Source of the DNA: Candidatus Poribacteria bacterium
GTDB taxonomy: Bacteria; Poribacteria; WGA-4E; WGA-3G
Direction: 5' to 3'
NCBI GenBank assembly: GCA_965205015.1
Contig: OZ242029.1
Coordinates: 2,496,001-2,560,000, forward strand
DNA: 64,000 nucleotides
Numbering within the stretch: the first letter of the stretch is position 1; each line of letters begins with the position of its first letter. The notes below the pieces were generated by a model. That model was not told the origin of the DNA and did not search any database. It saw nothing but the letters and a program-made list of their open reading frames with translations. Both the position numbers and the translations under genes were made by a program. This document shows, piece after piece, positions 16,472-58,270 of the stretch.

Positions 16472-16537
16472 TAACAAATACCCGAGTGACGGGTGCTTAT
16501 TTTTTCAATCACCCTTTGTGGAAAAGGAGATGTTCTC

Positions 16538-17293
16538 ATGGAAACGCATCCAAATTCACGCCACATCCCTTACGCTCCCACAGAAACTGCTGATCTATAC
16601 CCTGAATCGGATGGAAAACCTATGGCTGAGACGGATATGCACGCGGTGGCTATCATCGATTTACGGCACCGTTTTGACAACTTCTTCGCGGATAATCTGG
16701 ATACTTATGTCTCCGGGACTATCATGATGTATGATGTAGAGGGTCCCGGCCGTACCGCTGTCTCGCCCGATATCCTCGTCTCTTTCGGCATAGGTAAGAA
16801 ACTCCGCCGCACTTATAAGGTGTGGGAAGAGGGGAAGCCGCCAGACTTCGTGATGGAGTTTTCAAGCAAAGGGACGTTTCAAAATGACTTAGGACATAAA
16901 AAGGCACATTACGCGTCAATGGGAATACCGGAGTATTTTCTCTGCGATATAGACAAACGCTATTTGCCCACGCCGCTGATGGGGTTTTGTCTCAAAGATG
17001 GGATTTATGAGCGGATACCGGAGAACACCGATGGCAGTATCTCCTCTGTGATATTAGGCGTATCGTTCCATCTGTCGGATGAGGGATTAGCCGTTTATGA
17101 TGAGGCGACGGGGCAGTGGCTGCAAACGCCTGCTGAAGCGGCAGAGCAGCGTGCAGAACAAGAAGCCGCCGCACGGGCGCGTGAAGCCGCCGCACGGGCG
17201 CGTGAAGCCGCCGCACGGGCGGAAGCGGAAGCAGAAGCCTCGCGTCTACGCGAAGAACTTGAGCGTCTCAAAGGGCGCTTGTCAGAGGACTAA
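16538..17293 (+). CDS. Uma2 family endonuclease with C-terminal coiled-coil repeats
   Basis: YPESDGKPMAET, SPDILV, KPPDFVMEFSS, IPEYFLCD; start ATG 16538 after GGAG. Confidence 0.9.
   Translation: METHPNSRHIPYAPTETADLYPESDGKPMAETDMHAVAIIDLRHRFDNFFADNLDTYVSGTIMMYDVEGPGRTAVSPDILVSFGIGKKLRRTYKVWEEGKPPDFVMEFSSKGTFQNDLGHKKAHYASMGIPEYFLCDIDKRYLPTPLMGFCLKDGIYERIPENTDGSISSVILGVSFHLSDEGLAVYDEATGQWLQTPAEAAEQRAEQEAAARAREAAARAREAAARAEAEAEASRLREELERLKGRLSED
17162..17221 (+). repeat. 21-bp in-frame tandem repeat (about 2.9 copies) encoding EAAARAR
   Basis: GAAGCCGCCGCACGGGCGCGT at 17162, 17183 and 17204 (last copy partial). Confidence 0.95.
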
Positions 17294-25589: not shown

Positions 25590-25620
25590 ATAATCGGAAA
25601 GACAATGTGGTTATAGATTC

Positions 25621-25645
25621 GGTGCGGTTAGGAAACCGCACCTAC
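25621..25645. repeat. REP-like hairpin
   Basis: GGTGCGGTTAGGAAACCGCACCTAC; its reverse complement shares the GGTTTCCTAACC core with 12363. Confidence 0.7.
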
Positions 25646-25834
25646 CGGGTCTGCGGTAAGCCTCTTTTTCAATAGCACATGTCGCCCTACGGGACTAAAG
25701 CATGAAGAATTAAATGCACCAACTTGATATTCTTGCTTCAAGCATGTTATAATTTTAGACAATTGGTTTATTTCAAGCTGCAAGCACCTCGAAACCAATC
25801 CTTTTCAAATCCAACTCTTAACGGAGATATTGAC

Positions 25835-26170: not shown

Positions 26171-26272
26171 AAATGTCTTGATATCTCAACAGACTTATGG
26201 CATAATTGTTAGAGGTTGATCAATTTCACATTGTGAAAACCGGTCCGAAATTCAGCACAATCGTAGGAGATC

Positions 26273-26896: not shown

Positions 26897-26925
26897 TTGA
26901 AGCATAGCTCAAGGAAGTAATCCAC

Positions 26926-28170
26926 ATGGCAAGAGAAAGAACCGTCAAATTCCCCCCCCGCAAACGAGGCGGAAAACTTACAGTCCGTCAGGTTGAACGC
27001 GCAGTGAAAAAGGTCATTCGTGAGCGGCTTGAGTGGGAAGCCTCAGAATCCTATCAGCGTATCTATTCTACGCAATCTACGCTACTACTTGAGGCCATAG
27101 CTGAAACATTGGATATATCTGAAACCCACTATGAATCCGCGGTAAAACGTTACAAAGGGATCCGTGCGTGGTTAGAACGAGATGAATCCAGCGTTGCCCG
27201 TTATAATCCTGAAATTTATCCTCAAGGTTCTTTTGCACTCGGCACGGTTACGAAACCTCTTTCTGATGCCGAAGTGTACGACATAGACTTTGTTTGTGAG
27301 TTGAAACTTCAGAAAACAGAGATCAGTCAAAAGCAACTCGACAAGTTAGTGGGACAAGAAATCAAATCCTATGCACGTACTAATGACATAAATTCTCAAC
27401 CTGAAGAAAGTCGGTATCTTTGGACGCTGAATTATGTCGATGGTGCTCAGTTTCATGTAAATATCTTACCAGCTATTCCGGACGCAGAGTCTTTCAAAGA
27501 ATTTATTGCGTCAAAGGGTTCCGTGCCGTCTGATTGGTCAGATTCCGCGATTGCAATTACAGACAATACGCTTCCCAATTATTGCCGAATTGATGCCGAC
27601 TGGCCACGCAGTAATCCAAAGGGGTACGCAGAATGGTTCCGAAGTCGTATGGACAATGTGCCTGAGTATAAAGTGAAAACCCCACTTCAGCAATCGATCC
27701 AGATATTAAAACGGCACCGCGATATCTGGTTTGATGAAAATCAATCTGCTTACGAGGAAAAGGCGAAACCGATCTCTATCATCATTACAACACTTGCAGC
27801 CCGTGCTTATGATAATCAAGCCGATCTGCAGCAAGCACTAATGAAAATTGTGACGGGAATGCAGGGGCATATTGCGGCTTACAAGACAGGTGTAGTTGTC
27901 CTACCCAATCCGGTAAACTCGCTTGAGAATCTTGCCGAGGAGTGGCAGGAGTATCCCATCCGAAGAGTCTGCTTTGAGGACTGGCTTAAACAGATATACT
28001 CGGACCTGACACAAGCGTTAGCACTAAGTGATATTCAGAGCGTAGCGGAATCGCTCAAACTTTGCTTGGGTGAGCGTGTTATCAGCGATGCATTACGGAA
28101 CGCCTTAGCATCAACAGGAGTCTCAGAAAACCCTATGCACGGTAACTTGAGCCATGAGATTAACCGATAA
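26926..28170 (+). CDS. cGAS/DncV-like nucleotidyltransferase (CD-NTase), atypical
   Basis: LDIS..Y, YPQGSFALGT, YDIDFV, SNPKGYAEWF, TPLQQSIQILKRHRD, PISIIITTLAA, NPVN..EN. Confidence 0.85.
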   Translation: MARERTVKFPPRKRGGKLTVRQVERAVKKVIRERLEWEASESYQRIYSTQSTLLLEAIAETLDISETHYESAVKRYKGIRAWLERDESSVARYNPEIYPQGSFALGTVTKPLSDAEVYDIDFVCELKLQKTEISQKQLDKLVGQEIKSYARTNDINSQPEESRYLWTLNYVDGAQFHVNILPAIPDAESFKEFIASKGSVPSDWSDSAIAITDNTLPNYCRIDADWPRSNPKGYAEWFRSRMDNVPEYKVKTPLQQSIQILKRHRDIWFDENQSAYEEKAKPISIIITTLAARAYDNQADLQQALMKIVTGMQGHIAAYKTGVVVLPNPVNSLENLAEEWQEYPIRRVCFEDWLKQIYSDLTQALALSDIQSVAESLKLCLGERVISDALRNALASTGVSENPMHGNLSHEINR

Positions 28171-40660: not shown

Positions 40661-41170
40661 TTAGGAAGAAGATTCTGACGCAATCTTGCTGGTGATAAAA
40701 TTAACGACTTCCTCAGGGGAGTGTTTTCCGAATCGGACGTAAACACCACGGAAGTTTTCAAGGCGTGTCGGATGGGCGAATGGACTGAGCAATACGCCAT
40801 TCGCGTCAACGTAAAAACTGCGAAATGTTTCCCAGGATCGCTCTAATTTATAGCAGCAACTTGTGATGATAAGTTTATCTGCTTCACAGTGATGGTGAAA
40901 CGGGAGAAAATATTTGTAGAGCGACCCGAGTAGAAAAGTGGCGGATAGCAGGGCGATGTAAATTGATTGGAAACCCCAATAGATGCCGATGAAAAGAAGG
41001 GTTAGAAAAACCGCTAATAAGATGGACTTGCGCCAATTTTCAACGAGTGGATGGACTGTCCATGAAAGCTTAGGTGGAAGGGTGGAAGGGTGGAAGGATG
41101 GGTGTCCACTCTTCCCTTCTTCCCTTCTTCCATCCGAGCGTCTTCCATTCCAGCTACTATTCTGTCCCAT
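40661..41170 (-). CDS. Hypothetical membrane protein with repeat-derived N-terminus
   Basis: ATG 41170 overlaps end of secG; two TM helices; LLSPF...LENFRG. Confidence 0.7.
   Translation of the reverse strand: MGQNSSWNGRRSDGRREEGKSGHPSFHPSTLPPKLSWTVHPLVENWRKSILLAVFLTLLFIGIYWGFQSIYIALLSATFLLGSLYKYFLPFHHHCEADKLIITSCCYKLERSWETFRSFYVDANGVLLSPFAHPTRLENFRGVYVRFGKHSPEEVVNFITSKIASESSS
41073..41151 (-). repeat. GGAAG/CTTCC 8-nt-periodic imperfect palindrome, in frame in CDS
   Basis: GGAATGGAAG...GGAAGAAGGGAAGAAGGGAAG...CCTTCCACCCTTCCACCCTTCCACC; related copy at 54300-54373. Confidence 0.8.
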
Positions 41171-41567
41171 CGCTGTCGAGTTCTGTCTTTGATGCGTCGT
41201 CGGTAGCGGTTCCGCTGTCTCCATCTGTTGTTGTTTCAACGCTTCCTTCGTCTGTCGTGTCAACAGGTTCGGTCGTGGCTTCCTGTGTTGTTTCCTGCTC
41301 AAGCGGTGTGAGTTCACCCCCGCTATCTTCGCCATAGAAACGCATCAGGAACAGTGAAATAACCATGAACCCGATAGCAAGCCATGTCGTCAGTTTACTA
41401 AGAAAGGTCGCGGCCCCGCGCCCTCCGAGAACAGACTGCATTTCCGCGCCGCCAAATGCGCTTGATGAAAGCCCTTCACCCTTACTGTCCTGTAACAAAA
41501 TGATCAGCGTCAGAACGACGCAGACCGGCACGAAGAGAAACACTACGAAACCGATAATAATTTCCAT
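41157..41567 (-). CDS. secG: Preprotein translocase subunit SecG
   Basis: ILLQDSKGEGLSSSAFGG...GGRGAATFLSKLT; follows tpiA. Confidence 0.92.
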   Translation of the reverse strand: MEIIIGFVVFLFVPVCVVLTLIILLQDSKGEGLSSSAFGGAEMQSVLGGRGAATFLSKLTTWLAIGFMVISLFLMRFYGEDSGGELTPLEQETTQEATTEPVDTTDEGSVETTTDGDSGTATDDASKTELDSDGTE

Positions 41568-44433: not shown

Positions 44434-47400
44434 ATGCGATACATCAAGCCCATCGTTTGGTTCATTTTTATCTTCTCCGGTGCCAGTGGACTTATCTATC
44501 AAGTCATCTGGATGCGGCAACTCACGCTCATTTTCGGGAGCACTGTTTTCGCAACGAGTACCGTCCTGACGGCGTTCATGGCAGGCCTCGCACTCGGTAG
44601 TTACTACTTCGGTAGGAAGATCGACGAAAGCACACTTACGGGCGAGGCGACCTCGCCCCTACGGATGTATGCGCTTCTGGAAGCCGGTATCGGTGCGTTC
44701 TGTCTTGTGTGGCCCCTCATTTTAACGGCACTTGGCGCGATCTATGTGCTGATCCATCGCAACGTCACATCGGAATTCTATACCCTCTCTCTGATTCGGT
44801 TTCTGTTGACCTTCGGGGTCATCTTGATTCCCTCTACGTTGATGGGCGGCACACTCCCGGTGCTGACCCGATTCTTTGTGAAAAGATTGGAGCAACTCGG
44901 CACGAACATCGGAATCCTGTATGCGTTGAACACGTTCGGTGCCGTTGTTGGAACTGTGGCGGCGGGTTTTTTCCTGATTGAGGCGTTGGGCATCCGATGG
45001 ACACTCGGGATCGGGATCGCTATCAATTTCGCTGTCGCAGCGGTTGCATTAGCATTAGCACAGAAGGTATCGGGAACAGAAGCGGACGAACCGCCTGAAG
45101 AAACACAACACGCGGAATCTGAAGATGTGCCCTATCTACCTGAAAGGCAATTAGTGTTATGGGCGATAGGTATCTCCGGGTTCTGTGCTTTGGCGTATGA
45201 AGTGTTATGGACCCGTATCATGGTCTTCTTCCTTGGGAGCACGACGTATGCGTTTGCGACGATGCTTGCGGCGTTCCTGTTCGGCATTGCACTGGGGAGC
45301 ATGGTGTTTTCGCGCTGGGTTGACCGGATTAAACAACCGATCGCGGTTTTCGGCATCGTTCAGCTCGGTATCGGGCTCTTCGCGCTTATCTTGATGCCGG
45401 CGTTTGAGGAGTTGTACGGGATGAGCCAAGCGTTCCAATCGACGTTCGGTGTGAGCAGATTTTGGGCGTTTTTCTCCTGTTTTCTTGTGATGTGTCTGCC
45501 GACGTTTCTGATGGGCGCGAGTTTTCCACTCGTAACGAAAATTTACACAGGTAACGCACGCCAATTGGGGAGGAGTATCGGAAACGTCTATGCAGTCAAC
45601 ACGGTTGGAAGTATTTTGGGCGCGTTTTGTGCGGGGTTTATCCTGATTCCATTGCTGGGTATCCGACCGAGTATCGTGCTGACGGTGGTTTTGAACACGG
45701 GCATTGGATGTTTTCTTGTTTTAAAAGATAGGGCGCGGGAAACCGAAACAGGAAGATCGCTCCTACAAGGCGTAGGCGTAGGGATACCGGTTCTCAGTGC
45801 TGGGTTGGCTGTGATTCTCTTGCTTACGGTGAATCAACCGCTCTTTCTGAAGAGTACTATTTTCAAAACGCAACGTCCCGGCGATACACTCATTGATTAC
45901 AACGAAGAGGTGGATGCCACCGTAACGACGTTAAAAGATGATGAAGGGGTCTACCGTCTCTATGTGGATACAAATCAAGCAGCAGATGCCTCGCGCTGGG
46001 ATTCACCGTCGCATCGCGTCATTGCGCACCTACCGTTACTGTTGCACCCACGTCCGAAACAGGCACTCGTCGTCGGGTTCGGTATGGGGCTTACCTCACA
46101 TTCAATCACACAGCACGGTGTCCGCGTCGATGCGATAGAATTGTCCAGTGGTGTGATTTCCGCGGCGCAAAAGCATTTCACGCACATCAATGGAAATGTG
46201 TTTGAGAATCCATTGTTCAATTATAGACTCAATGACGGACGAAATCATATCCTGATGACGAAGACGAAGTACGACATGATCTCAACGGGTATTATCCATC
46301 CGCTTGTGAGTGCGGGGAGTTCCAATATCTATACAGCGGACTTTTACCGACTCTGTCGTCGGATTCTGAGTGAAGATGGGATTATGTGCCAGTGGGTGCC
46401 GTTGCATCGCTTACCGGAGGCACACTATAAGATGATTGTGCGTACCTTCATTGAGGTGTTCCCACAGACGACGCTGTGGTACAAATACACACCCGATTTT
46501 GTGATTCTCATTGGCACGCCTGAGCCGCTCCGAATTGACTACAAAAACTTCATGGCACGTGCACGGATCGCGAGTATCCGCGAAGGGCTTGCTGCCGATG
46601 ACCTTGACGGTCCGTCGCTCCTCGATTCATTCATGATGGGACCCGAAACTGTGCGTAAATACGCTGGCGTTGGACCGATTCACACAGACAACCGTCCTCG
46701 ATTAGAATTCTTTCGGGGGATAGACTTGGTGGGGACGACACTGCAAAACGTTAAAGGGATGTCAGAATATCGGGAGCGGGTGCTACCTTATCTCGAAAAC
46801 TACGGCGCAACACTTGCAGAGAAACGGGGTGTCCGAGAGAAGCTCGACACTTACTTCAGAGCCACACAGCGGTTAATCCGTGGACAGATTGCTTACGCCA
46901 GTGGGCAGTATCAGAGTGCCGCATCGCTCATGAATGATGCTGTAGAAATCAACCCTGTTGACGAGACAATTCGTTACAACTTCGGTGTAGTTGCAGGCTT
47001 AATCCGTGAAGGTGAACAGGAAGAACTCCGACAGATTGAAAAGCAGGTACAGCAAACAATGGCGCAAAATCCTGATGACCTTCAGGGACACCTCCACTTG
47101 GCGACCTTATATGAGATGCAGGGTGAACTTGGAAAGGCAACGCGGGAACTGGAAGCGCTGCTCAGACGCGATCCAAAAAGATTTGAGGTCTACCTACTCT
47201 TGGGTCCCTTATATGAACGCCAAGAGCGATACCAGGATGCGCTTCGGACTTATGAACGACTTGAACGGCAGGCAACAACTTCGCAGCTGCCTGCGCCTAT
47301 TTTTGCGGCAATGGCGGGGCTCCATCTGCAATTAGAAAATCTAAAGGAAGCTGAAAGATATGGAAAGAAGGGCATCGCGACAGATGCCAATTCGTGGCGT

Positions 47401-47577
47401 TCACATTACATTCTTGGAAACGTTTACGCCGCTATGAATCAACCGCGGAAACAGATAGCGTCCTACGACACTGCCTTGAAAGTACTTGATGGAATCATCC
47501 GTGTTACCACAGATCCGAGTGAGTTATTGCGTGCCAGAGAACAGATCCAAAATGAACTTGAACGGCTTAGAAAATAA
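44434..47577 (+). CDS. Fused MFS-like membrane domain / spermidine synthase-like domain with C-terminal TPRs
   Basis: SGASGLIYQVIW, LMGGTLP, LYALNTFG, ALVVGFGMG, DGRNH, CQWVPL, TPR helices. Confidence 0.88.
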   Translation: MRYIKPIVWFIFIFSGASGLIYQVIWMRQLTLIFGSTVFATSTVLTAFMAGLALGSYYFGRKIDESTLTGEATSPLRMYALLEAGIGAFCLVWPLILTALGAIYVLIHRNVTSEFYTLSLIRFLLTFGVILIPSTLMGGTLPVLTRFFVKRLEQLGTNIGILYALNTFGAVVGTVAAGFFLIEALGIRWTLGIGIAINFAVAAVALALAQKVSGTEADEPPEETQHAESEDVPYLPERQLVLWAIGISGFCALAYEVLWTRIMVFFLGSTTYAFATMLAAFLFGIALGSMVFSRWVDRIKQPIAVFGIVQLGIGLFALILMPAFEELYGMSQAFQSTFGVSRFWAFFSCFLVMCLPTFLMGASFPLVTKIYTGNARQLGRSIGNVYAVNTVGSILGAFCAGFILIPLLGIRPSIVLTVVLNTGIGCFLVLKDRARETETGRSLLQGVGVGIPVLSAGLAVILLLTVNQPLFLKSTIFKTQRPGDTLIDYNEEVDATVTTLKDDEGVYRLYVDTNQAADASRWDSPSHRVIAHLPLLLHPRPKQALVVGFGMGLTSHSITQHGVRVDAIELSSGVISAAQKHFTHINGNVFENPLFNYRLNDGRNHILMTKTKYDMISTGIIHPLVSAGSSNIYTADFYRLCRRILSEDGIMCQWVPLHRLPEAHYKMIVRTFIEVFPQTTLWYKYTPDFVILIGTPEPLRIDYKNFMARARIASIREGLAADDLDGPSLLDSFMMGPETVRKYAGVGPIHTDNRPRLEFFRGIDLVGTTLQNVKGMSEYRERVLPYLENYGATLAEKRGVREKLDTYFRATQRLIRGQIAYASGQYQSAASLMNDAVEINPVDETIRYNFGVVAGLIREGEQEELRQIEKQVQQTMAQNPDDLQGHLHLATLYEMQGELGKATRELEALLRRDPKRFEVYLLLGPLYERQERYQDALRTYERLERQATTSQLPAPIFAAMAGLHLQLENLKEAERYGKKGIATDANSWRSHYILGNVYAAMNQPRKQIASYDTALKVLDGIIRVTTDPSELLRAREQIQNELERLRK

Positions 47578-47920: not shown

Positions 47921-49960
47921 ATGTCTCAAGAAACTCAAGAAGCTACATCACCTTGTTTAAAACGGACCCATTATTGTGGGGACCTGCGCTTAGCCGATGC
48001 AGGCGTCACTGTGCAACTCAACGGCTGGGTCAACCGCCGTCGAGACCATGGGGGCGTCATCTTCGTTGATTTACGCGATAGAACAGGCATCACACAAGTT
48101 GTCTTTGATCCACAGATTGATGAAAAAGCACACGTCCTCGCAGATAGTATTAGAAGCGAATATGTGCTGAACGTCAGCGGCATCGTCCGCGAACGGGATC
48201 CAGGCGAATTGCTGTTCCATGCGGACGCTGCGTACCAGACGGAACTCGCCGATGGCACCCTCTCCGCAGCGTTCCGATCTCTGTTTTCGGATGTCGATAC
48301 GAAGTACACCCTCTCTGAAGAGATTGAGGTAGCGACCCGCGTCGCCGGCACGCGGTGGCTGCTCACCGATGTCGAAAACAATCGGACGTATCACATCGTC
48401 AGTGAAGATGCGGGGGCGGAAAACGGTCTCAGCATTTATCAAGGCACGGTCAACCCGGAACTCGATACGGGTGAAATTGAAGTCGCTGTGGATTCTCTGA
48501 ATATTCTGAATACTGCCAAAACGCCGCCGTTCCCAGTTGAAGACGACGTTGACGTAGCGGAAGACATTCGGATGCGCTACCGATTCGTCGATCTACGCCG
48601 TCCTGAGATGCAGAAGACTTTGGCGATGCGGCATAAGGCAGCACTTGCAGCACGCAACTATATGAACGAGCAGGGTTTCCTTGAGATTGAGACTCCCATT
48701 TTGATGAACAGCACGCCAGAGGGGGCGCGCGATGTACTCGTTCCGAGTCGTCATTACCCCGGCAGGTTCTATGCGCTTCCACAATCCCCGCAGCAGTTCA
48801 AACAGATTTTGATGATGAGCGGTGTTGATCGGTATTTCCAGATAGCACGGTGCTTCCGCGATGAGGATACCCGTGCTGACAGACAGTTGGAATTCACCCA
48901 GCTTGATATTGAAATGTCATTCGCCGACGTGGACGATGTACTTGAGGTGACCGAGGGGTTGATGAAACGCATATTTGAGGATGCGGGGGGTATTCCCGTC
49001 CAAACGCCTTTCCTACGGCTCCCATATTACGAGTCGATGGCACGGTTCGGGAACGACAAACCCGACACGCGGTTCGGTATGGAGCTGACCGATCTCTCGG
49101 ATGTCATGGCGGACTGTGAGTTTCAGGTATTTACACGCACCTTGTCGGCAGGTGGGCAGGTTAAAGCCATTGCCGCGCCAGGGGGTGCAGACTTTTCACG
49201 CAAAGATATCGATGACCTGACGCAATTTGTCGCCATCTATCGCGCGAAAGGATTGGCATGGGTTAAGGTCACAGCAGACGGATTTTCCTCGGGTATCGTT
49301 AAGTTCTTCACAACAGAGCAACTTGAAACGGCACAGGAGAGAACGGGCGCGAAACCGGGCGATATCATGTTCTTTGTCGCCGACACACCGAAGGTCGTCG
49401 CCGATGCCCTCGGCAACCTCCGCCTCCACCTCGGACGCAAACTCAACCTCATTGACGAAACTCGGTACAACTTCCTGTGGATCGTTGATTATCCGCTGTT
49501 TGAGTGGAACGAGGATGAGAATCGGTATGAATCGGTACATCATCTATTCAGCGCGCCGAAAGAAGAATTTCTACCGCTCTTAGAGACGGATCCGAGTAAA
49601 GTCCAAGGTCAACACTACGATCTGGTGTGCAACGGCTATGAGATCTGTAGCGGAAGCGTGAGAATTCACCAGTGGGATGTTCAACAGAAGGTGTTTAAGA
49701 TTATAGGCATTACACCCGAGGATGTCAAAAATCGCTTTGGCTATTTCATAGACGCCTTGGCGTATGGCACGCCGCCGCATGCAGGTATTGCCCCGGGTTT
49801 AGACCGGATTGTTATGTTGATGCGGAATGAGGAGAACATCCGAGAGGTCATCGCGTTCCCGAAATCGCAACAGGGACTGTGCCCGCTCACACACGCTCCC
49901 TCTGTTGTAACGGATGCCCAACTGGAAGAGTTATCAATTCGCGTTGATGCAGAACTCTAA
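47921..49960 (+). CDS. aspS: Aspartate--tRNA ligase with 80-aa insertion
   Basis: RTHYCG, RDHGGVIFVDLRD, STPEGARD, LPQSPQ, CFRDED, PPHAGIAPGLDR. Confidence 0.97.
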   Translation: MSQETQEATSPCLKRTHYCGDLRLADAGVTVQLNGWVNRRRDHGGVIFVDLRDRTGITQVVFDPQIDEKAHVLADSIRSEYVLNVSGIVRERDPGELLFHADAAYQTELADGTLSAAFRSLFSDVDTKYTLSEEIEVATRVAGTRWLLTDVENNRTYHIVSEDAGAENGLSIYQGTVNPELDTGEIEVAVDSLNILNTAKTPPFPVEDDVDVAEDIRMRYRFVDLRRPEMQKTLAMRHKAALAARNYMNEQGFLEIETPILMNSTPEGARDVLVPSRHYPGRFYALPQSPQQFKQILMMSGVDRYFQIARCFRDEDTRADRQLEFTQLDIEMSFADVDDVLEVTEGLMKRIFEDAGGIPVQTPFLRLPYYESMARFGNDKPDTRFGMELTDLSDVMADCEFQVFTRTLSAGGQVKAIAAPGGADFSRKDIDDLTQFVAIYRAKGLAWVKVTADGFSSGIVKFFTTEQLETAQERTGAKPGDIMFFVADTPKVVADALGNLRLHLGRKLNLIDETRYNFLWIVDYPLFEWNEDENRYESVHHLFSAPKEEFLPLLETDPSKVQGQHYDLVCNGYEICSGSVRIHQWDVQQKVFKIIGITPEDVKNRFGYFIDALAYGTPPHAGIAPGLDRIVMLMRNEENIREVIAFPKSQQGLCPLTHAPSVVTDAQLEELSIRVDAEL

Positions 49961-49977: not shown

Positions 49978-50211
49978 CTGGCGAGGTTTCATGAAGATTA
50001 ATTTTTTAATTCGGTAATATGCGGGCAGGCACGAGACCTGGGGAAACACCCAAGCAAAAACCCCCTACAATGTCTTTTTTGCGATAGGATTTTCGGTAAT
50101 ATGCGGGCAGGCACGAGACCTGGGGAAACACCCAAGCAAAAACCCCCTACAATGTCTTTTTTGGGATAGGATTACCGAAATATTTATTTAAACTTCATCT
50201 AACCTCGCCAG
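49978..50211. repeat. Nested palindromic repeat with internal 82-bp tandem duplication
   Basis: CTGGCGAGGTTTC|ATGAAG..TTCGGTAAT..[unit x2]..ATTACCGAA..CTTCAT|CTAACCTCGCCAG. Confidence 0.9.
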
Positions 50212-50254: not shown

Positions 50255-51838
50255 ATGAACGAAAATGGAAATAAGCCAAAGGTCAGCCTCGGTCTGCTGT
50301 ACGGGATTGTCATTGCGATTATCGCTGGAGCGATTATCGGTGGGTTCGCGCCAGACTTTGCAGTCCATACAACAATACTCGGTGAAATATTCCTAAACCT
50401 CCTGAAAATGATAGTCGTGCCGCTCGTTGTTCTATCCATGGTAGTCGGGATAACGAATTTAGGCGATATTCGCAACATCGGTTCCATCGGTGGACGGACT
50501 GTTCTGTACTACATGGCGACAACCGCTATTTCCGTTCTCATCGGCATCATTCTCGTCAACATCATCTTGCCCGGGAAGGGACTCTCACAAGGCGAAGAAC
50601 GCTCGGATCTGAGTTACACACTCTCGGGTCCTGAGATGCTCACTGCTGAGTTGAGTGGGGAATTCAATCGGACCTATAACAATAAATACGTCATTACCCT
50701 CATCGACCAAGACATCCGGGGTGAAGTCGAATCAATTTCGGGAGCAACCGTCACAGTAAAATCGTGGCAACCCTTCAAGGACGCCCGTTATGTCACCACT
50801 GACGATGGGGAACGTTTGTTGTTCTCTGAGGGTCGGCTCGTCAGGATAGAACCCAACGCTACCGGTAAAGGCATTGACATCAGCTTACCGATCGCTACAA
50901 GAATGTCCGACAAAACGGAGCGGACGATGGGCAACACCATCAAAGAGGTATTCCTCGGCAACGAAAAGACCGGCAAAGAGGGGATGATCCCTTCGAACGT
51001 TTTCAAAGCGATGGTGCACACTGACATTCTCCCCTTAATCTTTTTCTCACTCCTCATTGGTGCCGCCTTGTCCATGCTTGGGGATATCGGAAAACCCGTT
51101 ATCTCCGTGATTGCGGGATTAAACGAAGCAGTGATGAAGCTCGTCCATTGGATTATGTATGTTGCACCCGTCGGCATCTTCGGCTTAATCGCCGGTAGGA
51201 TTGGTGAGGCAAAGGGATTCGCAGGTTTCTGGCCCGAACTCATTGCAGTCGGCAAGTACAGTGCCACAGTATTGTTAGGGCTCGGCTTACACGCTGTTGT
51301 CGTTTTACCGCTACTGCTGCTGTTCCTCGGACGCAGAAATCCAATTGACTACTTCAAGGGCATGGCAACTGCCTTATTGAACGCCTTTTCAACGGCGAGT
51401 TCAAGTGCGACCCTGCCCCTAACGATGGAAGGGGTTGAGAATCAGAACGGGGTCTCCAGACGGACCTCCAGTTTCGTCCTTCCCTTAGGCGCTACCATTA
51501 ACATGGACGGCACCGCACTCTATGAGGCGGTCGCTGTCATGTTCATCGCGCAGGTCTATGCGATCAACATGGATCCCGCGCAACAAATTGTTGTGGTGCT
51601 CACCGCGACCTTGGCAGCAATCGGCGCAGCAGGGATTCCGGAGGCAGGCCTCGTCACAATGGTTATTGTACTCAGAGCCGTGGACCTCCCCGTTGAAGGT
51701 ATCACACTGATTCTCTCTATCGATTGGCTCCTTGATCGCTTCCGTACCACAATTAACGTCTGGGGTGACAGCATCGGGGCAGGCGTAATTGAGAGATATG
51801 AATCCGGAGATTCAACTGACGCGCCAGCAACGGCGTAA
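50255..51838 (+). CDS. Dicarboxylate/amino acid:cation symporter (DAACS)
   Basis: FLNLLKMIVVPL, AFSTASSSATLP, PLGATINMDGTALYE, DWLLDRFRT. Confidence 0.95.
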   Translation: MNENGNKPKVSLGLLYGIVIAIIAGAIIGGFAPDFAVHTTILGEIFLNLLKMIVVPLVVLSMVVGITNLGDIRNIGSIGGRTVLYYMATTAISVLIGIILVNIILPGKGLSQGEERSDLSYTLSGPEMLTAELSGEFNRTYNNKYVITLIDQDIRGEVESISGATVTVKSWQPFKDARYVTTDDGERLLFSEGRLVRIEPNATGKGIDISLPIATRMSDKTERTMGNTIKEVFLGNEKTGKEGMIPSNVFKAMVHTDILPLIFFSLLIGAALSMLGDIGKPVISVIAGLNEAVMKLVHWIMYVAPVGIFGLIAGRIGEAKGFAGFWPELIAVGKYSATVLLGLGLHAVVVLPLLLLFLGRRNPIDYFKGMATALLNAFSTASSSATLPLTMEGVENQNGVSRRTSSFVLPLGATINMDGTALYEAVAVMFIAQVYAINMDPAQQIVVVLTATLAAIGAAGIPEAGLVTMVIVLRAVDLPVEGITLILSIDWLLDRFRTTINVWGDSIGAGVIERYESGDSTDAPATA

Positions 51839-51863
51839 ATGCCGCATCGTTAAGAAGTATCAA

Positions 51864-54146
51864 ATGAACACGCCCAATGAACCGAATCCACAGCAGATAG
51901 TGCTCAGTGTTACAGCGATTCTCTCCATTATCAGCGTCGTGCTCGCCGCCGGATGGATAGCCTTTGCCTATTACAAAGGCAGTGCTAACAGCAGTCGAAT
52001 ACTACTGCTGCACCCAGTCGTACCGATACTGCTGATTGTTTTGCTTATCCGCGTTTACCGCTGGATCGACCTAAAAAGTATCGTTATTCTTGAGATACTG
52101 ATGATAACTGTATGGATTTTTATACGTTTGTTGGGCGTGCTGACCCCTTTCATTTTAGGATTTGGCTTTGCTTATATCTTTAGGTTTCTCTGGAATGCTC
52201 TCCCCTTTAAAGCACAATACCAACGTGGGATCGCGACAGTCCTGATTTTACTCGTTTGTGGTGGGCTGCTCTTCTATACTGGAAAACAGGTGAGTAAACA
52301 AGCAAGTCAGATGGGCAGTGGGTTACTGAAGTTTTATCATGAAATTGTTCTGCCTTATGTCGTCGGTGAAACGTTTGAGGCAATCGCTATCAGTGTTAAT
52401 AGCAGTCAGGAAGAGAACCGCTCACCTGAAGGTTTCCCGCGAGAACCGATGGAAACCGATAGCCAATACGTAGAGACGTTCTACCTCGGGACGAACCACG
52501 GTGTCTATGAAATTCGACAGCGGACAGAGGGGGAGCACAGTATTGGTATCACGAACGGTGCCCTTCTTGGTAAACCGATACAAGCCCTTGCAGCAGTTGG
52601 AAATGTTATCTACGCTGGTACGCAGAGTGGGTTATATCGGTATTACAAGGCGTTGCCTACGGATGTCCCGGAAGCAATTGACGGTGAGGCAACAAGTACC
52701 CAGAACATCAAACCGAAGATATGGCATAGGGTGCAAGGGACCCCCTTCGATACTATTTCCGTCCAAACTCTCAACGTTCCGACTTGGGATAATGCCCAGA
52801 TTTATGTTGGAACACAAAAAGGACTCTACAGCAGTAGGGATTTAGGACGAACATGGCGTGAGGTTGCCCCTGACACTTATGGTGAAAGGTCGATCGTCAG
52901 TATTGTCTCAATTGTGGATGCGAATGGCGATAGGACAATTTATGTCGCCAGTACAGCGATAATTGATGCGATGCCTTCAGAAGGGCCGGTCTCCACGCCT
53001 AAAGCTACAACGGTGCATTGGTATCTGGCGGATTCCTCTCTTGAGTGGAATCCGCTTCCTTCTATCATAACGCATCCGGTTTACGCGCTTGCAAGTGGCG
53101 GTAGAACGTGGAGTGATAAGGAATCGGGGTTGCAAACCCCTCCTACACGGGTGTTTGATATTGAACTGTACGCGGGTACGTCCGATGGGCTTTATGAATG
53201 GCATCGTCTCGGCACGTGGCGGAAAACGGAAGGGACCCCTGTCGTCTCGTTGTTAGCGTCGGCACCTTCCGGCGTATACATCGGTACCGAAACTGCTATC
53301 CTTCATCGTGCTACGGCTACTGCGGGTTGGCAGCCGTTTGCGACGCGGAACGAAGGGGTCAGTTACACCTACAGGGACGAGCCTATTGTCCAGCAGGCGA
53401 AAACATACCTGACCGAAAGGCTTCCAACAATAGCCCAAACCGGTAGTGAGGCTGTCAGGGAAGGGGTTCAGTTCGCGGGTTCGATCGCTTTTGGGTTCGG
53501 TGGATTTTTAGCCACAGTGTCACTCGCGTTCATTGTATTTGTCTACGCAAACCAGTCGTTTGACAATTATTTCCGCGGTTTCATCACCTTGGTTCCTGAA
53601 CTCCATCGCGAAACCGTCAAGACTTATCTGCGCGAAATTGATAGAAATTTACAGCAGTTCCTCAAAGGATTAGTTGCGGTCATCGCGATTGTATCTGTGG
53701 TTTCCTGTATTGTGTACAGCATTATCGGTGTACCCTTCGCATTGGTTATTGGTGTTATCGCCGGGATCTGTAATGCTATACCAACCTTTGGACCCTTTAT
53801 CGGTGGCGGTTTCGCCTATGTGGCGATGCTAATGGGACTGGCGGCTGGGGATTTCGGCATAATTGATTTCCTCGTTCGCAGTGCATTTCTGTTAGCTGCC
53901 ATTCTTGGCATTCAGATGCTTGACAACTCATTAATTTCACCGAAAATCATGAGCACCGCTGTTGATGTGGACCCGCTGTTGATTATGTTTGCTGTGATTG
54001 TTGGGGCAGCCGTACTCGGATTTTGGGGTGTATTGCTTGCAATTCCTATGATTGTTGTGGTAAAATCGGTTATTGCCGTTTCTCAATCTGTGGCGACAGA
54101 TGGGCCCACTGTAGGCGGGAACTCCGATTCCCAACTGACGCACTGA
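51864..54146 (+). CDS. AI-2E family transporter with large beta-propeller-like insertion
   Basis: TPFILGFGFAY; NAIPTFGP, DNSLISPKIMS, DPLLI, GFWGVLLAIP; central Y.GT..G.Y repeats. Confidence 0.85.
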   Translation: MNTPNEPNPQQIVLSVTAILSIISVVLAAGWIAFAYYKGSANSSRILLLHPVVPILLIVLLIRVYRWIDLKSIVILEILMITVWIFIRLLGVLTPFILGFGFAYIFRFLWNALPFKAQYQRGIATVLILLVCGGLLFYTGKQVSKQASQMGSGLLKFYHEIVLPYVVGETFEAIAISVNSSQEENRSPEGFPREPMETDSQYVETFYLGTNHGVYEIRQRTEGEHSIGITNGALLGKPIQALAAVGNVIYAGTQSGLYRYYKALPTDVPEAIDGEATSTQNIKPKIWHRVQGTPFDTISVQTLNVPTWDNAQIYVGTQKGLYSSRDLGRTWREVAPDTYGERSIVSIVSIVDANGDRTIYVASTAIIDAMPSEGPVSTPKATTVHWYLADSSLEWNPLPSIITHPVYALASGGRTWSDKESGLQTPPTRVFDIELYAGTSDGLYEWHRLGTWRKTEGTPVVSLLASAPSGVYIGTETAILHRATATAGWQPFATRNEGVSYTYRDEPIVQQAKTYLTERLPTIAQTGSEAVREGVQFAGSIAFGFGGFLATVSLAFIVFVYANQSFDNYFRGFITLVPELHRETVKTYLREIDRNLQQFLKGLVAVIAIVSVVSCIVYSIIGVPFALVIGVIAGICNAIPTFGPFIGGGFAYVAMLMGLAAGDFGIIDFLVRSAFLLAAILGIQMLDNSLISPKIMSTAVDVDPLLIMFAVIVGAAVLGFWGVLLAIPMIVVVKSVIAVSQSVATDGPTVGGNSDSQLTH

Positions 54147-54164
54147 TGCTCTGGAGGAAGACTC

Positions 54165-55634
54165 ATGGAAACGCCACGTCCCATTGTTGCGATCGTCGGC
54201 AGACCGAACGTCGGAAAATCATCGCTTTTCAATCGAATCACTGGAAATAGCCGTCGGCAGAATAGCCGTCAGCGGTCAGCCGTCAGGCGTCAGGAAGAGG
54301 GAATGGAAGAAGGGAAGAAAGGAAGAAGGGAAGGATGGGAGTCCCACGCTTCCACTCCTCCACTCTTCCAACCAAATGCCGAAAACCGTGTCTCGCGTAA
54401 ATACGCTGTCGTTCATGACACTCCCGGCGTGACGCGCGACAGGAACTACGCTGACGTGGAATGGGCAGACCGCGCTTTTACCATCGTTGACACCGGTGGT
54501 TTGGACGTTGATCCGGATGACCGACTCATTGATAGCGTTCAAGCACAGGTAGATACAGCGGTGGCTGAAGCGGATCTCGTCCTTTTTGTCGTTGACGCGC
54601 GAGCCGGTATCATGCCCCACGATAGGGTTGTCGTTGATAAACTCAGAACCGCTGGTAAACCTATCTTCCTCGTCGTCAATAAGGTAGATAGCGACCGATT
54701 TCACAATGAAGCCGCTGAGTTTTACGCGCTCGGATTGGCAGAGCCACTGTTGACCTCGTGTGTCCAAAACGATGGAATTCGGGAACTCCTTGACCGCGTC
54801 GTTGATGCCCTTCCAGAGACCGATGAAACTGTCCACGCTGCGCCAGCTACGATGAAAATCGCCGTTGTTGGCAGGCCGAATGTCGGAAAATCCTCGTTTA
54901 TCAACAGTTTGTTGGGTGAAGAACGGATGATTGTTGATGACCGACCTGGTACCACGCGTGATGCAGTGAATATACGGATCGTTCACGACAATATCCCTTT
55001 TGAGGTCGTTGATACAGCGGGAATGCGGCGTAAATCCACTATCAATGATGCGCTTGAATCGGCGACCGTCCAACGTGCGATACACAGCATTCGCCAAAGT
55101 GACATCGCTGTACTGATGCTGGATGTAACCCAGGAGGTCGCGCAGCAGGATAAAACGATTGCTAATTTCATCGAACGCCAAGGGAAAGCCTCCGTTTTAG
55201 TCATGAACAAGTGGGACCTAATTGATAAAGACAACACAACGCATCCAGCGTTTATGGATGCGATAGATGTCCAGTTTCCACAACTCGGCTATGTTCCACG
55301 GGTTTTCGTGTCGGCACTCACTGGACAGCGCGTTACCCAAGTATTAACGACTGCGCTTGAGGTCTACCGTGAGTATTGTACACACATCCCTACACCGGTA
55401 CTCAACGAATTGCTGCTGGAATTGCGGAGTGCGCATCCGCCGCCGCGGGTTAAAGGTGCACGTCCGGCGCTCAAATATATCACGCAGGTGGAAACCAAAC
55501 CGCCGACTTTTTTAATCTTCGGACGAAATATCCATCGCGTGCAGCAGCCGTATGAGGCGTACCTTATCAACAGTATTCGGAAGGAATTTGGATTTCACGG
55601 CACACCGATACGGATTTTTTATCGCAGGTCATAA
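54165..55634 (+). CDS. der: Ribosome biogenesis GTPase Der with about 49-aa insertion
   Basis: Two GRPNVGKSS P-loops, PGVTRDR, DTGG, DTAG, NKWD, FGFHGTPIRI. Confidence 0.96.
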   Translation: METPRPIVAIVGRPNVGKSSLFNRITGNSRRQNSRQRSAVRRQEEGMEEGKKGRREGWESHASTPPLFQPNAENRVSRKYAVVHDTPGVTRDRNYADVEWADRAFTIVDTGGLDVDPDDRLIDSVQAQVDTAVAEADLVLFVVDARAGIMPHDRVVVDKLRTAGKPIFLVVNKVDSDRFHNEAAEFYALGLAEPLLTSCVQNDGIRELLDRVVDALPETDETVHAAPATMKIAVVGRPNVGKSSFINSLLGEERMIVDDRPGTTRDAVNIRIVHDNIPFEVVDTAGMRRKSTINDALESATVQRAIHSIRQSDIAVLMLDVTQEVAQQDKTIANFIERQGKASVLVMNKWDLIDKDNTTHPAFMDAIDVQFPQLGYVPRVFVSALTGQRVTQVLTTALEVYREYCTHIPTPVLNELLLELRSAHPPPRVKGARPALKYITQVETKPPTFLIFGRNIHRVQQPYEAYLINSIRKEFGFHGTPIRIFYRRS

Positions 55635-55647
55635 AAGGAGAAATGCT

Positions 55648-56619
55648 TTGTCAAAATTTAAAGTCTTTGTTACGCGTCCTATCCGAGAAGAGATCCGCAC
55701 AAAAATAGAAGAAGAATGCGAGGTTGATATGTGGCACACGAGTGCCATTTTACCGCCCATCGCTGAAAGAATTCCGCCCTTGGATGGGTTAATGACTTAT
55801 GGGCATGAGCCCGTCTCTCCAGAGATGATTGCGACAGCCCCGAATCTCAAAGCTATCTCTGTCGTTGGGGTCGGTTATGATCACGTCCATGTTGAGGCGT
55901 GTAGAGAACGAGGGATCGCGGTTGGACATACCCCCGGGGTGCTCAGTGATACCACTGCCGATATGACTATGGCACTCTTGCTCGCTGCGGCACGAAATAT
56001 TGTTCCTGCCTATAACCATGTTCAAGTTGCTAAACAGTGGCATTACTATGATCCAAACATCCTCTGGGGAACCGATGTACATCATTCGACTTTAGGAATT
56101 GTGGGTATGGGACGTATTGGGTATGCGGTTGCCAAACGTGCCAGGGCTTTTGACATGCGTGTCCTTTACTACAAACGTGAACGCCGACCCGACTGGGAAC
56201 AGGAGCTCGGCGTAGAATACGTGACACTTGAGAATCTATTGAAAGTCTCCGATTTCGTGACGCTTCATGTCCCGTTAACGGAGGAAACGACGCACTTCAT
56301 CGGCGCATCGGAACTCGCTTTGATGAAAAAGACCGCCATTTTAGTCAATATCGCGAGAGGTCCTGTCGTTGACCACTATGCTTTATATGATGCGCTCCAG
56401 CAGGGGCAGATTGCCGGTGCCGCTGTTGATGTAACCGAACCGGAACCCATTAATACCGACCATCCATTACTTGATTTGGACAATGTGATTATTGCTCCCC
56501 ATCTCGGCAGTGCGACTGTGCAGACTCGGATGAAAATGATGACAATGGCGATGGAGAATTTACTTGCTGGTTTAAAGGGAGAGCAATTGCCCTATGGTGT
56601 GCTTCAGCCAAACTTTTAG
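55648..56619 (+). CDS. D-2-hydroxyacid dehydrogenase (glyoxylate/hydroxypyruvate reductase type)
   Basis: VGYDHV, HTPGVL, GIVGMGRIG, NIARGPVVD, DVTEPEP, PHLGSAT; TTG start after AAGGAG. Confidence 0.92.
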   Translation: MSKFKVFVTRPIREEIRTKIEEECEVDMWHTSAILPPIAERIPPLDGLMTYGHEPVSPEMIATAPNLKAISVVGVGYDHVHVEACRERGIAVGHTPGVLSDTTADMTMALLLAAARNIVPAYNHVQVAKQWHYYDPNILWGTDVHHSTLGIVGMGRIGYAVAKRARAFDMRVLYYKRERRPDWEQELGVEYVTLENLLKVSDFVTLHVPLTEETTHFIGASELALMKKTAILVNIARGPVVDHYALYDALQQGQIAGAAVDVTEPEPINTDHPLLDLDNVIIAPHLGSATVQTRMKMMTMAMENLLAGLKGEQLPYGVLQPNF

Positions 56620-56620
56620 G

Positions 56621-56751
56621 AGTTATCAGTTAACAGTTGTCAGTCATCAGTTAAGACGTGTGGTAGTTGTGTTTTGCGTGAATGCCACGAGGATTTCTTT
56701 AACCAACAACTGAAAGCTGAAAGCCTGCGCAGCAGGCGTACTGAAAACCGT
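56621..56751. repeat. Heptamer-periodic imperfect palindromic repeat
   Basis: AGTTATCAGTTAACAGTTGTCAGTCATCAGTTAAG ... CAACTGAAAGCTGAAAGC...CTGAAAACCG. Confidence 0.7.
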
Positions 56752-56763
56752 AAAGGGGGGAAG

Positions 56764-58095
56764 ATGATACTGGAAAAATTATTTGCGTTAAAAGAAAACG
56801 GCACTTCGTTAAGACGCGAATTGGTTGCGGGTCTCACGAATTTTATGACGATTTCATATATAATTTTCGTGCAACCGTCGATGCTGTCGTTGGCCGGCAT
56901 GGATTATGGTGCCGTTATGGTCGCGACCTGCCTCTCCAGTGCCCTCGCGACGTTATTCATGGGATATTTTACGAATTATCCCGTTGTATTGGCGCCGGGT
57001 ATGGGGCTTAACGCCTATTTCGTTTTTGACGTTTGCAGAGGTTCAGGCGTGCCGTGGCAGGAAGCTTTAGGTATCGTTTTCATCGCCGGCATGCTGTTCT
57101 TTGCCCTCTCGTTTGTGGGCGTCCGCGCCACCATCATGAATGCCCTTCCGCGCTCGCTCCAAAATGCCATTGCTATCGGGATTGGGCTGTTTATTGCCTT
57201 CATCGGACTGCAGATGAGTGGAATCATTACAAAGGACCCTGCCACATTTATAACCCGGGGGAACCTTGACTCCACTCCGGTCTTGCTTTCACTCTTCGGC
57301 ATTGCTGTGACGCTCACACTCATCGCACGCAAGGTGCGAGGCGCGATCCTGATTGGTATCCTTGTTTCAACTGCTGCCAACCTGATCGTCGGAACTGCCA
57401 TGTATGAGGGTAGAATCGCTGCGCCGCCCCCCGATATCACGCCAACGTTCTTTAAACTACAGTTTCCCAACATCTTTGCTAAGTTGGAACTCATCCCTGT
57501 CATCTTTGTGTTTTTTGCGATTGATATGTTTGATAGTATTGGGACTCTCACGGCTATCGGCTATAGAGCGGAGTTGATGGAAGAGGGAAAACTCACAAGA
57601 GCCAGAGGGGCGCTTTTGACGGACGCAGGGAGTACCGTTGGTGGTTCCTTACTCGGCACCTCGACTGTGACCTGTTACATTGAAAGCGCGACGGGGATTA
57701 CGGAAGGTGGACGGACAGGGCTTACCGCCGTCGTCACAGCGGTTTGTATGTTGCTCTCTCTCTTTTTATATCCGCTTGTTAAGATTGTAGGCGGCGGGTT
57801 TCAGATCGGACCTTCTGCTTTCCTTTATCCGATTATCGCCCCAGCCCTCATCGTTGTCGGTGGATTGATGCTCAGGAATGTCAGCCAGATTGATTGGGAA
57901 GACATCACGGAATCGATCCCTGCGTTCCTTACGATGCTGATGATGCCGCTCTCCTTCAGTATTACAGACGGCATTGGTTTTGGGTTTATCTCATTGGCGT
58001 TTTTGAAGTTGGTGACGGGTCGTAGAAAAGAGATTCATCCTGTCATTTACTACTTCGCACTCTTCTTTATCGCCTGCTACATCGGTGATCTGTAG
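56764..58095 (+). CDS. NCS2/AzgA family purine permease
   Basis: GTSLRRELVAGLT, APGMGLNAYF, GIGLFIAFIGL, YIESATG..EGGRTG, SITDGIGFG. Confidence 0.93.
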   Translation: MILEKLFALKENGTSLRRELVAGLTNFMTISYIIFVQPSMLSLAGMDYGAVMVATCLSSALATLFMGYFTNYPVVLAPGMGLNAYFVFDVCRGSGVPWQEALGIVFIAGMLFFALSFVGVRATIMNALPRSLQNAIAIGIGLFIAFIGLQMSGIITKDPATFITRGNLDSTPVLLSLFGIAVTLTLIARKVRGAILIGILVSTAANLIVGTAMYEGRIAAPPPDITPTFFKLQFPNIFAKLELIPVIFVFFAIDMFDSIGTLTAIGYRAELMEEGKLTRARGALLTDAGSTVGGSLLGTSTVTCYIESATGITEGGRTGLTAVVTAVCMLLSLFLYPLVKIVGGGFQIGPSAFLYPIIAPALIVVGGLMLRNVSQIDWEDITESIPAFLTMLMMPLSFSITDGIGFGFISLAFLKLVTGRRKEIHPVIYYFALFFIACYIGDL

Positions 58096-58121: not shown

Positions 58122-58270
58122 CTGGCGGGGTTTCATGAGGATTAACAATTTAATTCGGTAATGCGTGGGCAGGCACAAGACCCGGGGAAACACCCAAGCA
58201 AAAACCCCCTACAGTCGTTTTTTGGGATAGAATTACCGAAATATTTTCTTAAACTTCATCTAACCCCGCC
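58122..58270. repeat. Nested palindromic repeat (single-unit copy)
   Basis: CTGGCGGGGTTTC|ATGAGG..TTCGGTAAT..GGGAAACACCCAAGCAAAAACCCCCTAC..ATTACCGAA..CTTCAT|CTAACCCCGCC. Confidence 0.9.

Follow-up and report, generated by a model that had tools for sequence, protein, structure and literature searches.

A probable in-frame copy of a Poribacteria palindromic repeat within the GTPase Der

A genome of a Candidatus Poribacteria bacterium contains, in a stretch of 64,000 nucleotides (nt) that is referred to here as the window (contig OZ242029.1, positions 2,496,001 to 2,560,000), a der (engA) gene whose product, the ribosome biogenesis GTPase Der, has about fifty additional residues in its first G domain. 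In bacteria where it has been tested, der is essential. We consider it probable that the additional segment is an in-frame, translated copy of a composite palindromic repeat specific to Poribacteria, that it is read as a disordered loop, and that slippage and replacement of its centre change its content over time. This reading is carried by direct observation of the anatomy of the element, of the membership of both its layers in repeat families, of polymorphism at the site, of conservation of the reading frame, and of a module found in the same frame in an unrelated protein. An earlier note on this DNA had proposed that intergenic repeat families enter open reading frames (ORFs) and make new peptide loops, and the family membership, the polymorphism of the site and in-frame copies in two other genes all support that proposal.

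The insertion in Der

The der ORF (54165..55634, plus strand) encodes 489 amino acids (aa) and has a Shine-Dalgarno-like GGAGG 7 nt 5' of its ATG. The product matches TIGR03594, 'ribosome biogenesis GTPase Der', with 518.6 bits against a cutoff of 306.7, the HMMER match being divided into two stretches; for annotation, inserts of this kind depress family scores and split alignments without the gene being broken. The EngA/Der structures 4dcs and 2hjg are full-length sequence matches of the protein in the Protein Data Bank (PDB; phmmer), and the best Foldseek match of the Der model is YphC/EngA 9bsl_W (E 3.6e-40), with EngA/YphC matches including a ribosome-bound form. In the phmmer alignment, Der residues 5-28 correspond to residues 3-26 of Bacillus subtilis EngA (2hjg) and Der residues 79-487 to residues 27-433. 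Since residues 26 and 27 of 2hjg are adjacent across the break, the intervening residues of Der are a 50-residue insertion (Table 1). The earlier note had placed about 49 extra codons at 54246-54392, limits that differ from ours by 3-6 nt, or within two codons.

The insertion lies after the end of the P-loop helix alpha1 and ahead of the conserved stretch that holds the G2 threonine (switch I). Residues G12-S19 (P-loop), T90, D109-G112, N172, K173 and D175 occupy invariant columns of a 51-sequence alignment, and the first G domain, as judged from these columns, keeps G1, G2, G3 and G4 intact despite the insert. In an AlphaFold2 model of the window Der built on this alignment, the insert lengthens helix alpha1 at low confidence and then runs on as coil. 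The predicted local distance difference test scores for residues 31-90 have block means of 51, 50, 38, 31, 32 and 32, against a mean of 78.6 for the whole model, in which the cores are confident. The insert is thus predicted to be a floppy, probably disordered surface loop of approximately 50 residues.

The inserted DNA has a layered structure (Table 1). In the left arm, Tandem Repeats Finder (TRF) reports AGCCGTC at period 7 (4.3 copies, 54264-54293); a CAG-phase array spans 54270-54293, the nhmmer left-arm profile matches 54263-54298 (E 0.011), and the arm can be aligned to the der arms of L001, L002, L005, L006, L026 and L047 (L numbers denote the sampled Der loci described below). In the central module, a purine run GAAGGGAA of period 8 (4.1 copies, 54301-54333) stands opposite a pyrimidine run TCCACTCC (2.5 copies, 54351-54370), both reported by TRF; the inverted arms, 54313-54340 and 54342-54369, are 28 nt long, and the module can be aligned to a copy downstream of secG in the window and to a copy in L046. 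The right-arm remnant matches the CCGAAAG/CCGACAG heptamers of relatives as well as the stretch following the hairpin in L046. Compared with short forms of the segment (23 aa; L007, L008, L012), the window has extra left heptamers, and its hairpin is placed exactly between the inner-stem AAGA and the following ACCAAA. Across 54246-54392 the Der frame and one other plus-strand frame are free of stop codons, and the remaining four frames have one or two stops each. The earlier note had described a heptamer arm enclosing a GGAAG/CTTCC palindrome with the frame preserved; the nesting and the frame were confirmed, but the palindrome is weak, with arms only 75% complementary and a predicted RNA fold of -29 kcal/mol (z -1.54) that 17 of 200 shuffled sequences equalled in stability. 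The intergenic hairpins of the same family fold with z from -3.35 to -6.03, a difference which suggests that the coding copy is a decayed palindrome.

From the peptide searches it follows only that no known domain corresponds to the insert. The inserted residues gave no scored candidates in a region-restricted homologue search, and HMMER found no match at E <= 0.001 for the 50-aa insert among 1.84 billion representatives, a search in which so short and biased a peptide has little power. A search with the back-translated insert motif retrieved no other genome. A promoter and terminator scan of 53900-56900 gave counts at the level of shuffled sequence and was uninformative. We also considered an intein, and dropped this reading because 50 aa is far below intein size.

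Table 1. Coordinates of the Der insert, its parts and the other repeat copies of the window
Feature	Position	Strand	Basis
Inserted coding segment	Der residues 29-78 = nt 54249-54398	+	phmmer alignment break relative to 2hjg
Left arm, heptamer array with CAG-phased AGCCGTC-type units	54246..54293	+	TRF, CAG-phase array, nhmmer, alignment to relatives
Central module, imperfect GGAAG/CTTCC hairpin with 8-nt period	54293..54373	+	TRF, inverted arms; one of the 7 hairpins counted
Right-arm remnant, CCAAATGCCGAAAACCG type (CCGAAAA-type stretch), then conserved der sequence	54374..54398	+	Alignments
In-frame heptamer-arm element in the AI-2E-transporter-like gene 51789..54146, directly 5' of der	about 52398..52469	+	Orthologs; nhmmer 52378-52412, E 0.091 (weak)
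Intergenic heptamer-arm palindrome	56618..56745	+	nhmmer left arm E 1.1e-7, right arm E 0.012; CAG-phase array 56627-56650
Second GGAAG/CTTCC hairpin	41073..41150	-	blastn, TRF period 8; directly 3' of secG (41157..41567, -, TIGR00810)

The repeat families and their copies in other genes

The comparison covered 80 Der loci (58 from Poribacteria, 22 from other phyla), each with as much as 10 kb of flanking DNA on either side. The Poribacteria DNA searched, including the window, amounts to 1.165 Mb and the outgroup DNA to 0.33 Mb. The Poribacteria set contains 27 CAG-phased heptamer arrays of at least four units; each of five shuffles gave 0-1 and the outgroups gave none. Exact TAACTGA dimers number 11, spread over 7 Poribacteria loci, and are absent from the outgroups. 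The arrays are parts of an element in which CAGNNNN units make up the left array, the inner stem AAGAG ... CTCTT encloses a variable centre, and the right array repeats the left one in reverse complement, with units such as TAACTGA, CTGAAAG, CCGAAAG and CTGATAG. A pattern of arm, stem and arm matched 26 times in the relatives, representing 18 distinct elements since palindromes match on both strands, against 0-3 matches in shuffled sequence. The strict pattern gave no match in the window because the copies there are degenerate, and nhmmer arm profiles built from the relatives were used for the window census, which comprises three heptamer-arm copies and two GGAAG hairpins.

Most of these arrays are intergenic. 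Seven of the 27 lie in recognised genes (four in der, two in AI-2E-like genes and one in a spermidine-synthase-like gene), one lies in a 141-aa frame of unclear standing, and 19 have no long open frame through them. Typical copies, such as those at 11371-11431 in L012 and at 56618-56745 in the window, fill the entire spacer from a stop codon to the next ribosome-binding site, and in both of these the right arm alone abuts the ribosome-binding site of the next gene. The window copy occupies the spacer between genes for a 2-hydroxyacid dehydrogenase and a permease and has TAACTGA-like units on the minus strand; copies with one or two mismatches lie at 56619-56653, and four such TAACTGA dimers were found against 0.31 expected. 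The start of the permease is probably an ATG near 56764 and not the listed TTG at 56674. Intergenic heptamer-arm elements in L002 (5875-5950), L006 (7488-7580), L008 (11373-11500) and L046 (11397-11520) are followed by a further small palindrome, GGATTTTTTGAAAAAATCC, which may be another module of this family.

The GGAAG/CTTCC hairpins with an 8-nt period are also confined to Poribacteria, with 7 copies in the Poribacteria set and none in the outgroups or in any of ten shuffles. The count of 7 was obtained with a relaxed pattern, the strict one having missed the copy in der. These hairpins have a conserved apex in common, and two of the 7 are in frame in recognised genes, namely der of the window and a spermidine-synthase-like gene of L046. 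The other hairpin of the window, downstream of secG, has a predicted fold of -32.1 kcal/mol (z -3.35) that none of 200 shuffles equalled. A long frame, 40661..41335, runs through it, but its 224-aa part at 40664-41335 matches no Pfam family and its part at 40661-41047, downstream of the hairpin, no NCBIfam family, and the hairpin is therefore most likely intergenic. It is the better-preserved sibling of the der hairpin, and the 5' part of the listed ORF is probably noncoding. Both layers of the Der insert belong to repeat families that are specific to Poribacteria and mostly intergenic.

The same modules were found within other genes. In L046, a 1064-aa spermidine-synthase-like membrane protein has heptamers, a GGAAG hairpin and the right-hand stretch of the window der copy in a loop between membrane segments, while the ortholog in the window (44434..47577) has no element and that of L006 has a version with heptamers only. 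The apex of the hairpin and the stretch after it match between the window der and the L046 gene. The encoded peptides are identical at 18 of 41 positions (E 6e-8); both genes therefore use one and the same frame of the element. Similarly, the centre of the der element of L003 matches, at 22 of 23 nt, the centre of an element in the spermidine-synthase-like gene of L024. Directly 5' of der in the window, the AI-2E-like gene carries an element that is also present, with 1-5 heptamers, in the orthologs of L002, L006, L008, L009 and L012; the other AI-2E-like orthologs listed have unrelated sequences of approximately 18-34 aa at this site.

The der site among relatives

In all 22 outgroup loci, 9 aa separate the end of the P-loop helix motif from the G2 region; the earlier note had described this segment as only a few residues long in Der. 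It is also 9 aa long in five Poribacteria loci of the deepest branch (L052-L055 and L058; about 60% identity). After exclusion of the truncated L057, 57 Poribacteria loci are informative, and in the 52 others of these the segment ranges from 17 to 58 aa, compared with 59 aa in the window. Among the best 120 database homologues it measures 17-76 aa in 119, the remaining one being truncated at its N-terminus. The short segment of basal and outgroup loci and the variable length elsewhere mean that the insert is neither invariant nor phylum-wide. The earlier note had suggested aligning Der from relatives for polymorphism of the insert, and had held that an invariant insert unrelated to intergenic repeats would speak against its proposal; the alignment shows a variable one. 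The 52 other expanded der loci all lack the GGAAG module. The site was already an expansion segment before the lineage of the window arose, and the GGAAG module is the part specific to the window.

Two types of content can be distinguished at this site. Cassettes that start with GNS(R/H)Q have DNA that is plainly a heptamer-arm element, while the DNA of those that start with ASAP has at most traces of heptamers, e.g. CCGAAACTGAAAC. A quick maximum-likelihood tree of Der, computed with the segment taken out, mixes the two types. The sister loci L048 (heptamer type) and L056 (ASAP type) carry unrelated cassettes of 39 aa, and L028 (ASAP type) is nested among loci of the heptamer type. Together with L003, L010 and L011 the window forms a group (Shimodaira-Hasegawa-like approximate likelihood ratio test, SH-aLRT, 97), and these three have yet another centre. 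The most similar protein, P0001, is 93% identical outside gaps and has the left arm and the right end in common with the window but a different centre.

An artefact of assembly or sequencing, in which a fold-back or a chimeric join placed a repeat into der, could explain why the exact insert was found in the window only, the peptide searches and the back-translated motif having retrieved no other. This explanation is highly improbable, as the insert is frame-exact, its palindrome is imperfect, unlike that of a perfect fold-back, its left arm and right end match der of L001, L002 and P0001, and independent assemblies of relatives have inserts of similar size at the same position.

It is also possible that nothing was copied into der, that the loop grew locally by slippage of short units in a tolerant linker, and that its likeness to intergenic repeats reflects a common mutational process. 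The number of heptamers does change stepwise between relatives, from 1 to 5 units, in both der and the AI-2E-like gene, and repeats of 7 nt are the most slippage-prone class in many genomes according to a view cited in a passage of MacGregor 2015 (PMC4679880). The same explanation would account for the failure to find a transposase or a target-site duplication, which is taken up below. However, inverted arrays around a stem are not a product of slippage alone, and slippage does not explain the complex, non-periodic modules common to unrelated genes in different genomes (der of the window and the L046 gene; der of L003 and the L024 gene) or the unrelated cassettes of equal length in the sisters L048 and L056. 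We therefore regard a purely local origin as unlikely.

Several lines of evidence suggest that the insert is translated and tolerated. All 52 expanded der loci preserve the frame and are free of stops, at segment lengths that vary threefold. In the three largest groups of cassettes, the ratio of nonsynonymous to synonymous substitution rates (dN/dS) is 0.43 (45 pairs), 0.34 (21 pairs) and 0.32 (9/10 pairs), the pairs not being independent, and the flanking 150 codons give 0.07-0.11 at similar dS. The older cassettes are on this evidence under purifying constraint at the protein level, while the heptamer-type cassettes look close to neutral. Hydrophobic residues make up 19% of the cassette as against 41% of the remaining Der, and the case for translation rests also on this hydrophilic composition and on the Rfam scan of 53800-54800, in which nothing came near its gathering score; the best hit, to a miRNA-precursor or generic hairpin model, scored 28.9 against 97 bits. 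The alternative, which the earlier note had also raised, is that the segment is absent from the protein through intron-like removal from the mRNA or translational bypass. Apart from the position of the segment early in the ORF and its capacity to form a hairpin, nothing speaks for this. The distance of the Rfam scores from their threshold, the preserved frame at lengths of 17-58 aa, the dN/dS of the older cassettes and the presence of the same element in frame in two other genes all argue against it, and group I or II introns are far longer than the 150-nt insert. Removal or bypass is accordingly very unlikely.

A further question is whether the loop is a selected functional addition, e.g. a lineage-specific contact with the Poribacteria ribosome or with a regulator, to which the repeat-like character of the DNA would be secondary. 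The site adjoins switch I, an expanded segment is kept in 52 of the 57 informative loci, and members of a cassette group do not differ in length (35, 39 or 44 aa) and have dN/dS values below 1. Across groups, however, neither sequence nor length is conserved, sisters carry unrelated cassettes, the same modules occur in unrelated proteins, the segment is predicted to be disordered, and the basal lineage and all outgroups manage without the expansion. A functional addition thus seems doubtful to us, and we infer instead a loop with little or no function of its own.

In full, the preferred reading, that of an inserted and translated copy, is as follows. The family consists of elements in which two inverted arrays of 7-nt units (CAGNNNN on the left, the TAACTGA/CTGAAAG/CCGAAAG-type complement on the right) surround the inner stem AAGAG ... 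CTCTT and an exchangeable central module, which in der of the window is the GGAAG/CTTCC hairpin with its 8-nt period. Such elements normally fill the space that separates a stop codon from the ribosome-binding site of the following gene. One copy lies in der at a permissive surface junction, at the end of helix alpha1 and ahead of the stretch leading to the G2 threonine, where it would be read through as a hydrophilic, probably disordered loop; during most of the history of the phylum this site has been an expansion segment. Its content would turn over in two ways, first by gain and loss of 7-nt and 8-nt units, of which only the frame-keeping outcomes would survive in an essential gene, and second by exchange of the central module for that of another member of the family. 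Turnover by slippage together with recombination or re-insertion is what we infer from the distribution of the cassettes.

Several points weigh against this reading. No transposase is found among the 48 scanned ORFs of the window (Pfam, E <= 1e-5), and no target-site duplication was identifiable when filled and short der sequences were aligned, such a duplication being unreadable where the flanks are themselves 7-nt repeats; this leaves the claim of mobility to the modules shared between unrelated sites. The nhmmer E-values of the der arm (0.011) and of the AI-2E arm (0.091) are weak. The degraded state of the der hairpin fits decay after arrival, yet it weakens the claim of a recent copy, and the exact insert peptide of the window is present in no other protein and has been seen only once. 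Translation is argued from the sequences. The dN/dS values of heptamer-type cassettes are scattered from 0.14 to 2.0, each on 1-6 pairs, and dN may be inflated where slippage-prone DNA is aligned without gaps; the GGAAG cassette of the window has no close relative with which to compare it. Finally, the tree is a quick one with SH-aLRT support only.

In two genomes, two unrelated genes have the GGAAG module at the same point, directly behind the inner stem AAGAG, and it is conceivable, though improbable, that the heptamer arrays are a specific landing site for a so far unknown copying mechanism that inserts hairpin modules at their centre. If this were the case, the junction of alpha1 and switch I in Der and the loops of the AI-2E-like and spermidine-synthase-like proteins would be cassette sites whose peptide content is actively exchanged in Poribacteria populations, possibly under diversifying pressure or with consequences for the expression of der through RNA or a repeat-binding protein. 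The der segment provides a ready-made strain marker for Poribacteria, and it offers a natural experiment on the amount of disorder that a G domain can accept beside its switch.

The spacer just 5' of the der start also holds repeats in some relatives. L013 has a GGAAG hairpin there (9886-9947), and L010, L011, L042 and L056 have, around 9888-9931, the core of an 82-bp unit that looks like a third repeat family. In the window this unit is duplicated in tandem (98% identical) at 50010-50173, 5' of a dicarboxylate symporter gene, with a third copy of 60 nt at 58154-58213. Its core of 19-22 nt was found at 20 sites in 11 Poribacteria loci, one of which, L046 11448-11468, lies just 3' of the der stop and beside the heptamer array at 11397-11420.

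Known repeats and further observations

The Poribacteria element extends the idea of selfish palindromes inside genes, best known from Rickettsia, to an uncultivated phylum of sponge symbionts, and does so at a striking position, one turn from switch I of an essential ribosome-assembly GTPase. Rickettsia palindromic elements (RPEs) are described, in a passage of PMC10969869 citing Ogata et al., as approximately 100-150 bp long and as occurring both between genes and in frame in unrelated, often housekeeping genes, where they encode similar peptides compatible with the protein fold. The Poribacteria repeat is likewise both intergenic and in frame in unrelated genes with a similar peptide, and on these descriptions it would work like an RPE, although we do not claim membership in an RPE family. 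It differs in its host phylum and in being modular, with inverted 7-nt arrays and an exchangeable centre; the content at der turns over between close relatives, unlike that of fixed RPE insertions, and the copy number in the Poribacteria window is modest. What is seen here is thus an instance of a known, RPE-like phenomenon, unusual both in its location and in its modular form with rapid turnover.

The 7-nt unit provides a second connection. Direct repeats of the heptamer TAACTGA occur in marine Beggiatoaceae, some Cyanobacteria and Bacteroidetes, and according to the relevant passages of MacGregor 2015 (PMC4679880) the arrays lie for the most part between genes, near the following start codon, are free of stops only in the 'reverse' orientation and are rare in ORFs; in the genome described there they are direct, with a single inverted case, and the intragenic copies are mostly at the ends of proteins. 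Poribacteria have the same unit in arrays that are also mostly intergenic and end near the next start. Their arrays, however, are inverted pairs around a stem and a centre and not direct repeats upstream of a start, their intragenic copies are internal and in der stand next to a catalytic switch, and the der units are GC-richer and diverged from TAACTGA (AGCCGTC type). Poribacteria are not mentioned in PMC4679880 (0 occurrences). In-gene palindromes are thereby connected with the unexplained TAACTGA arrays of Beggiatoaceae and cyanobacteria, which are therefore more widespread and take on a palindromic, modular shape in Poribacteria.

Comparisons with other classes of repeats are less close. 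Repetitive extragenic palindromic (REP) and REPIN elements, which go with REP-associated tyrosine transposases (RAYT; PMC3116915, PMC3733652), are short hairpin-forming intergenic repeats, REPs being extragenic by definition. The GGAAG hairpins are similar in size and position, e.g. 3' of secG, but their stems are built of 8-nt periodic units, two of 7 copies are coding, and no RAYT was found among the 48 scanned ORFs of the window. Measured against miniature inverted-repeat transposable elements, the arms are inverted arrays, with a target-site duplication not identifiable amid flanks of 7-nt repeats. The tandem repeats of Borg elements are fast-evolving, lie in ORFs and add intrinsically disordered segments (a passage of PMC9879509), yet these are direct tandem repeats of archaeal extrachromosomal elements, while the Poribacteria elements are palindromic and common to intergenic DNA.

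Very small hairpin elements inside tandem heptamer arrays and other repeats, occasionally in conserved genes, have reportedly been found in Nostoc/Anabaena (Elhai et al. 2008, Genome Res 18:1484), though organisms and sequences differ from those described here. Among the papers listed by full-text literature searches, none describes these repeats in Poribacteria, a result judged from titles and the starts of abstracts and hence weak evidence of absence; the Poribacteria paper PMC3909097 uses 'tandem repeats' for protein domains only.

Other genes of the window have additional segments of a different kind. The products of three neighbouring genes are much longer than their Pfam domains explain, namely the aspartyl-tRNA synthetase (47921..49960, 679 aa), with approximately 110 extra residues between its anticodon-binding and catalytic domains, the SDF symporter (50255..51838, 527 aa), with approximately 120, and the AI-2E-like protein (51789..54146, 785 aa), with approximately 400. 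The extra length in these proteins looks like folded inserts and not like repeat-derived sequence. Uma2-family genes are located at 13783 and 16493, and the latter (ORF 16493..17293) contains a perfect 21-bp in-frame tandem repeat (2.9 copies, 17162-17221), giving a repeated 7-residue motif in a putative restriction-endonuclease-like protein. A defence-like cluster at 20908-28170 encodes an Eco57I-type methylase/restriction protein, an AAA_21/AbiEii-like ATPase, a DUF433 protein and a SMODS/DncV-like nucleotidyltransferase.

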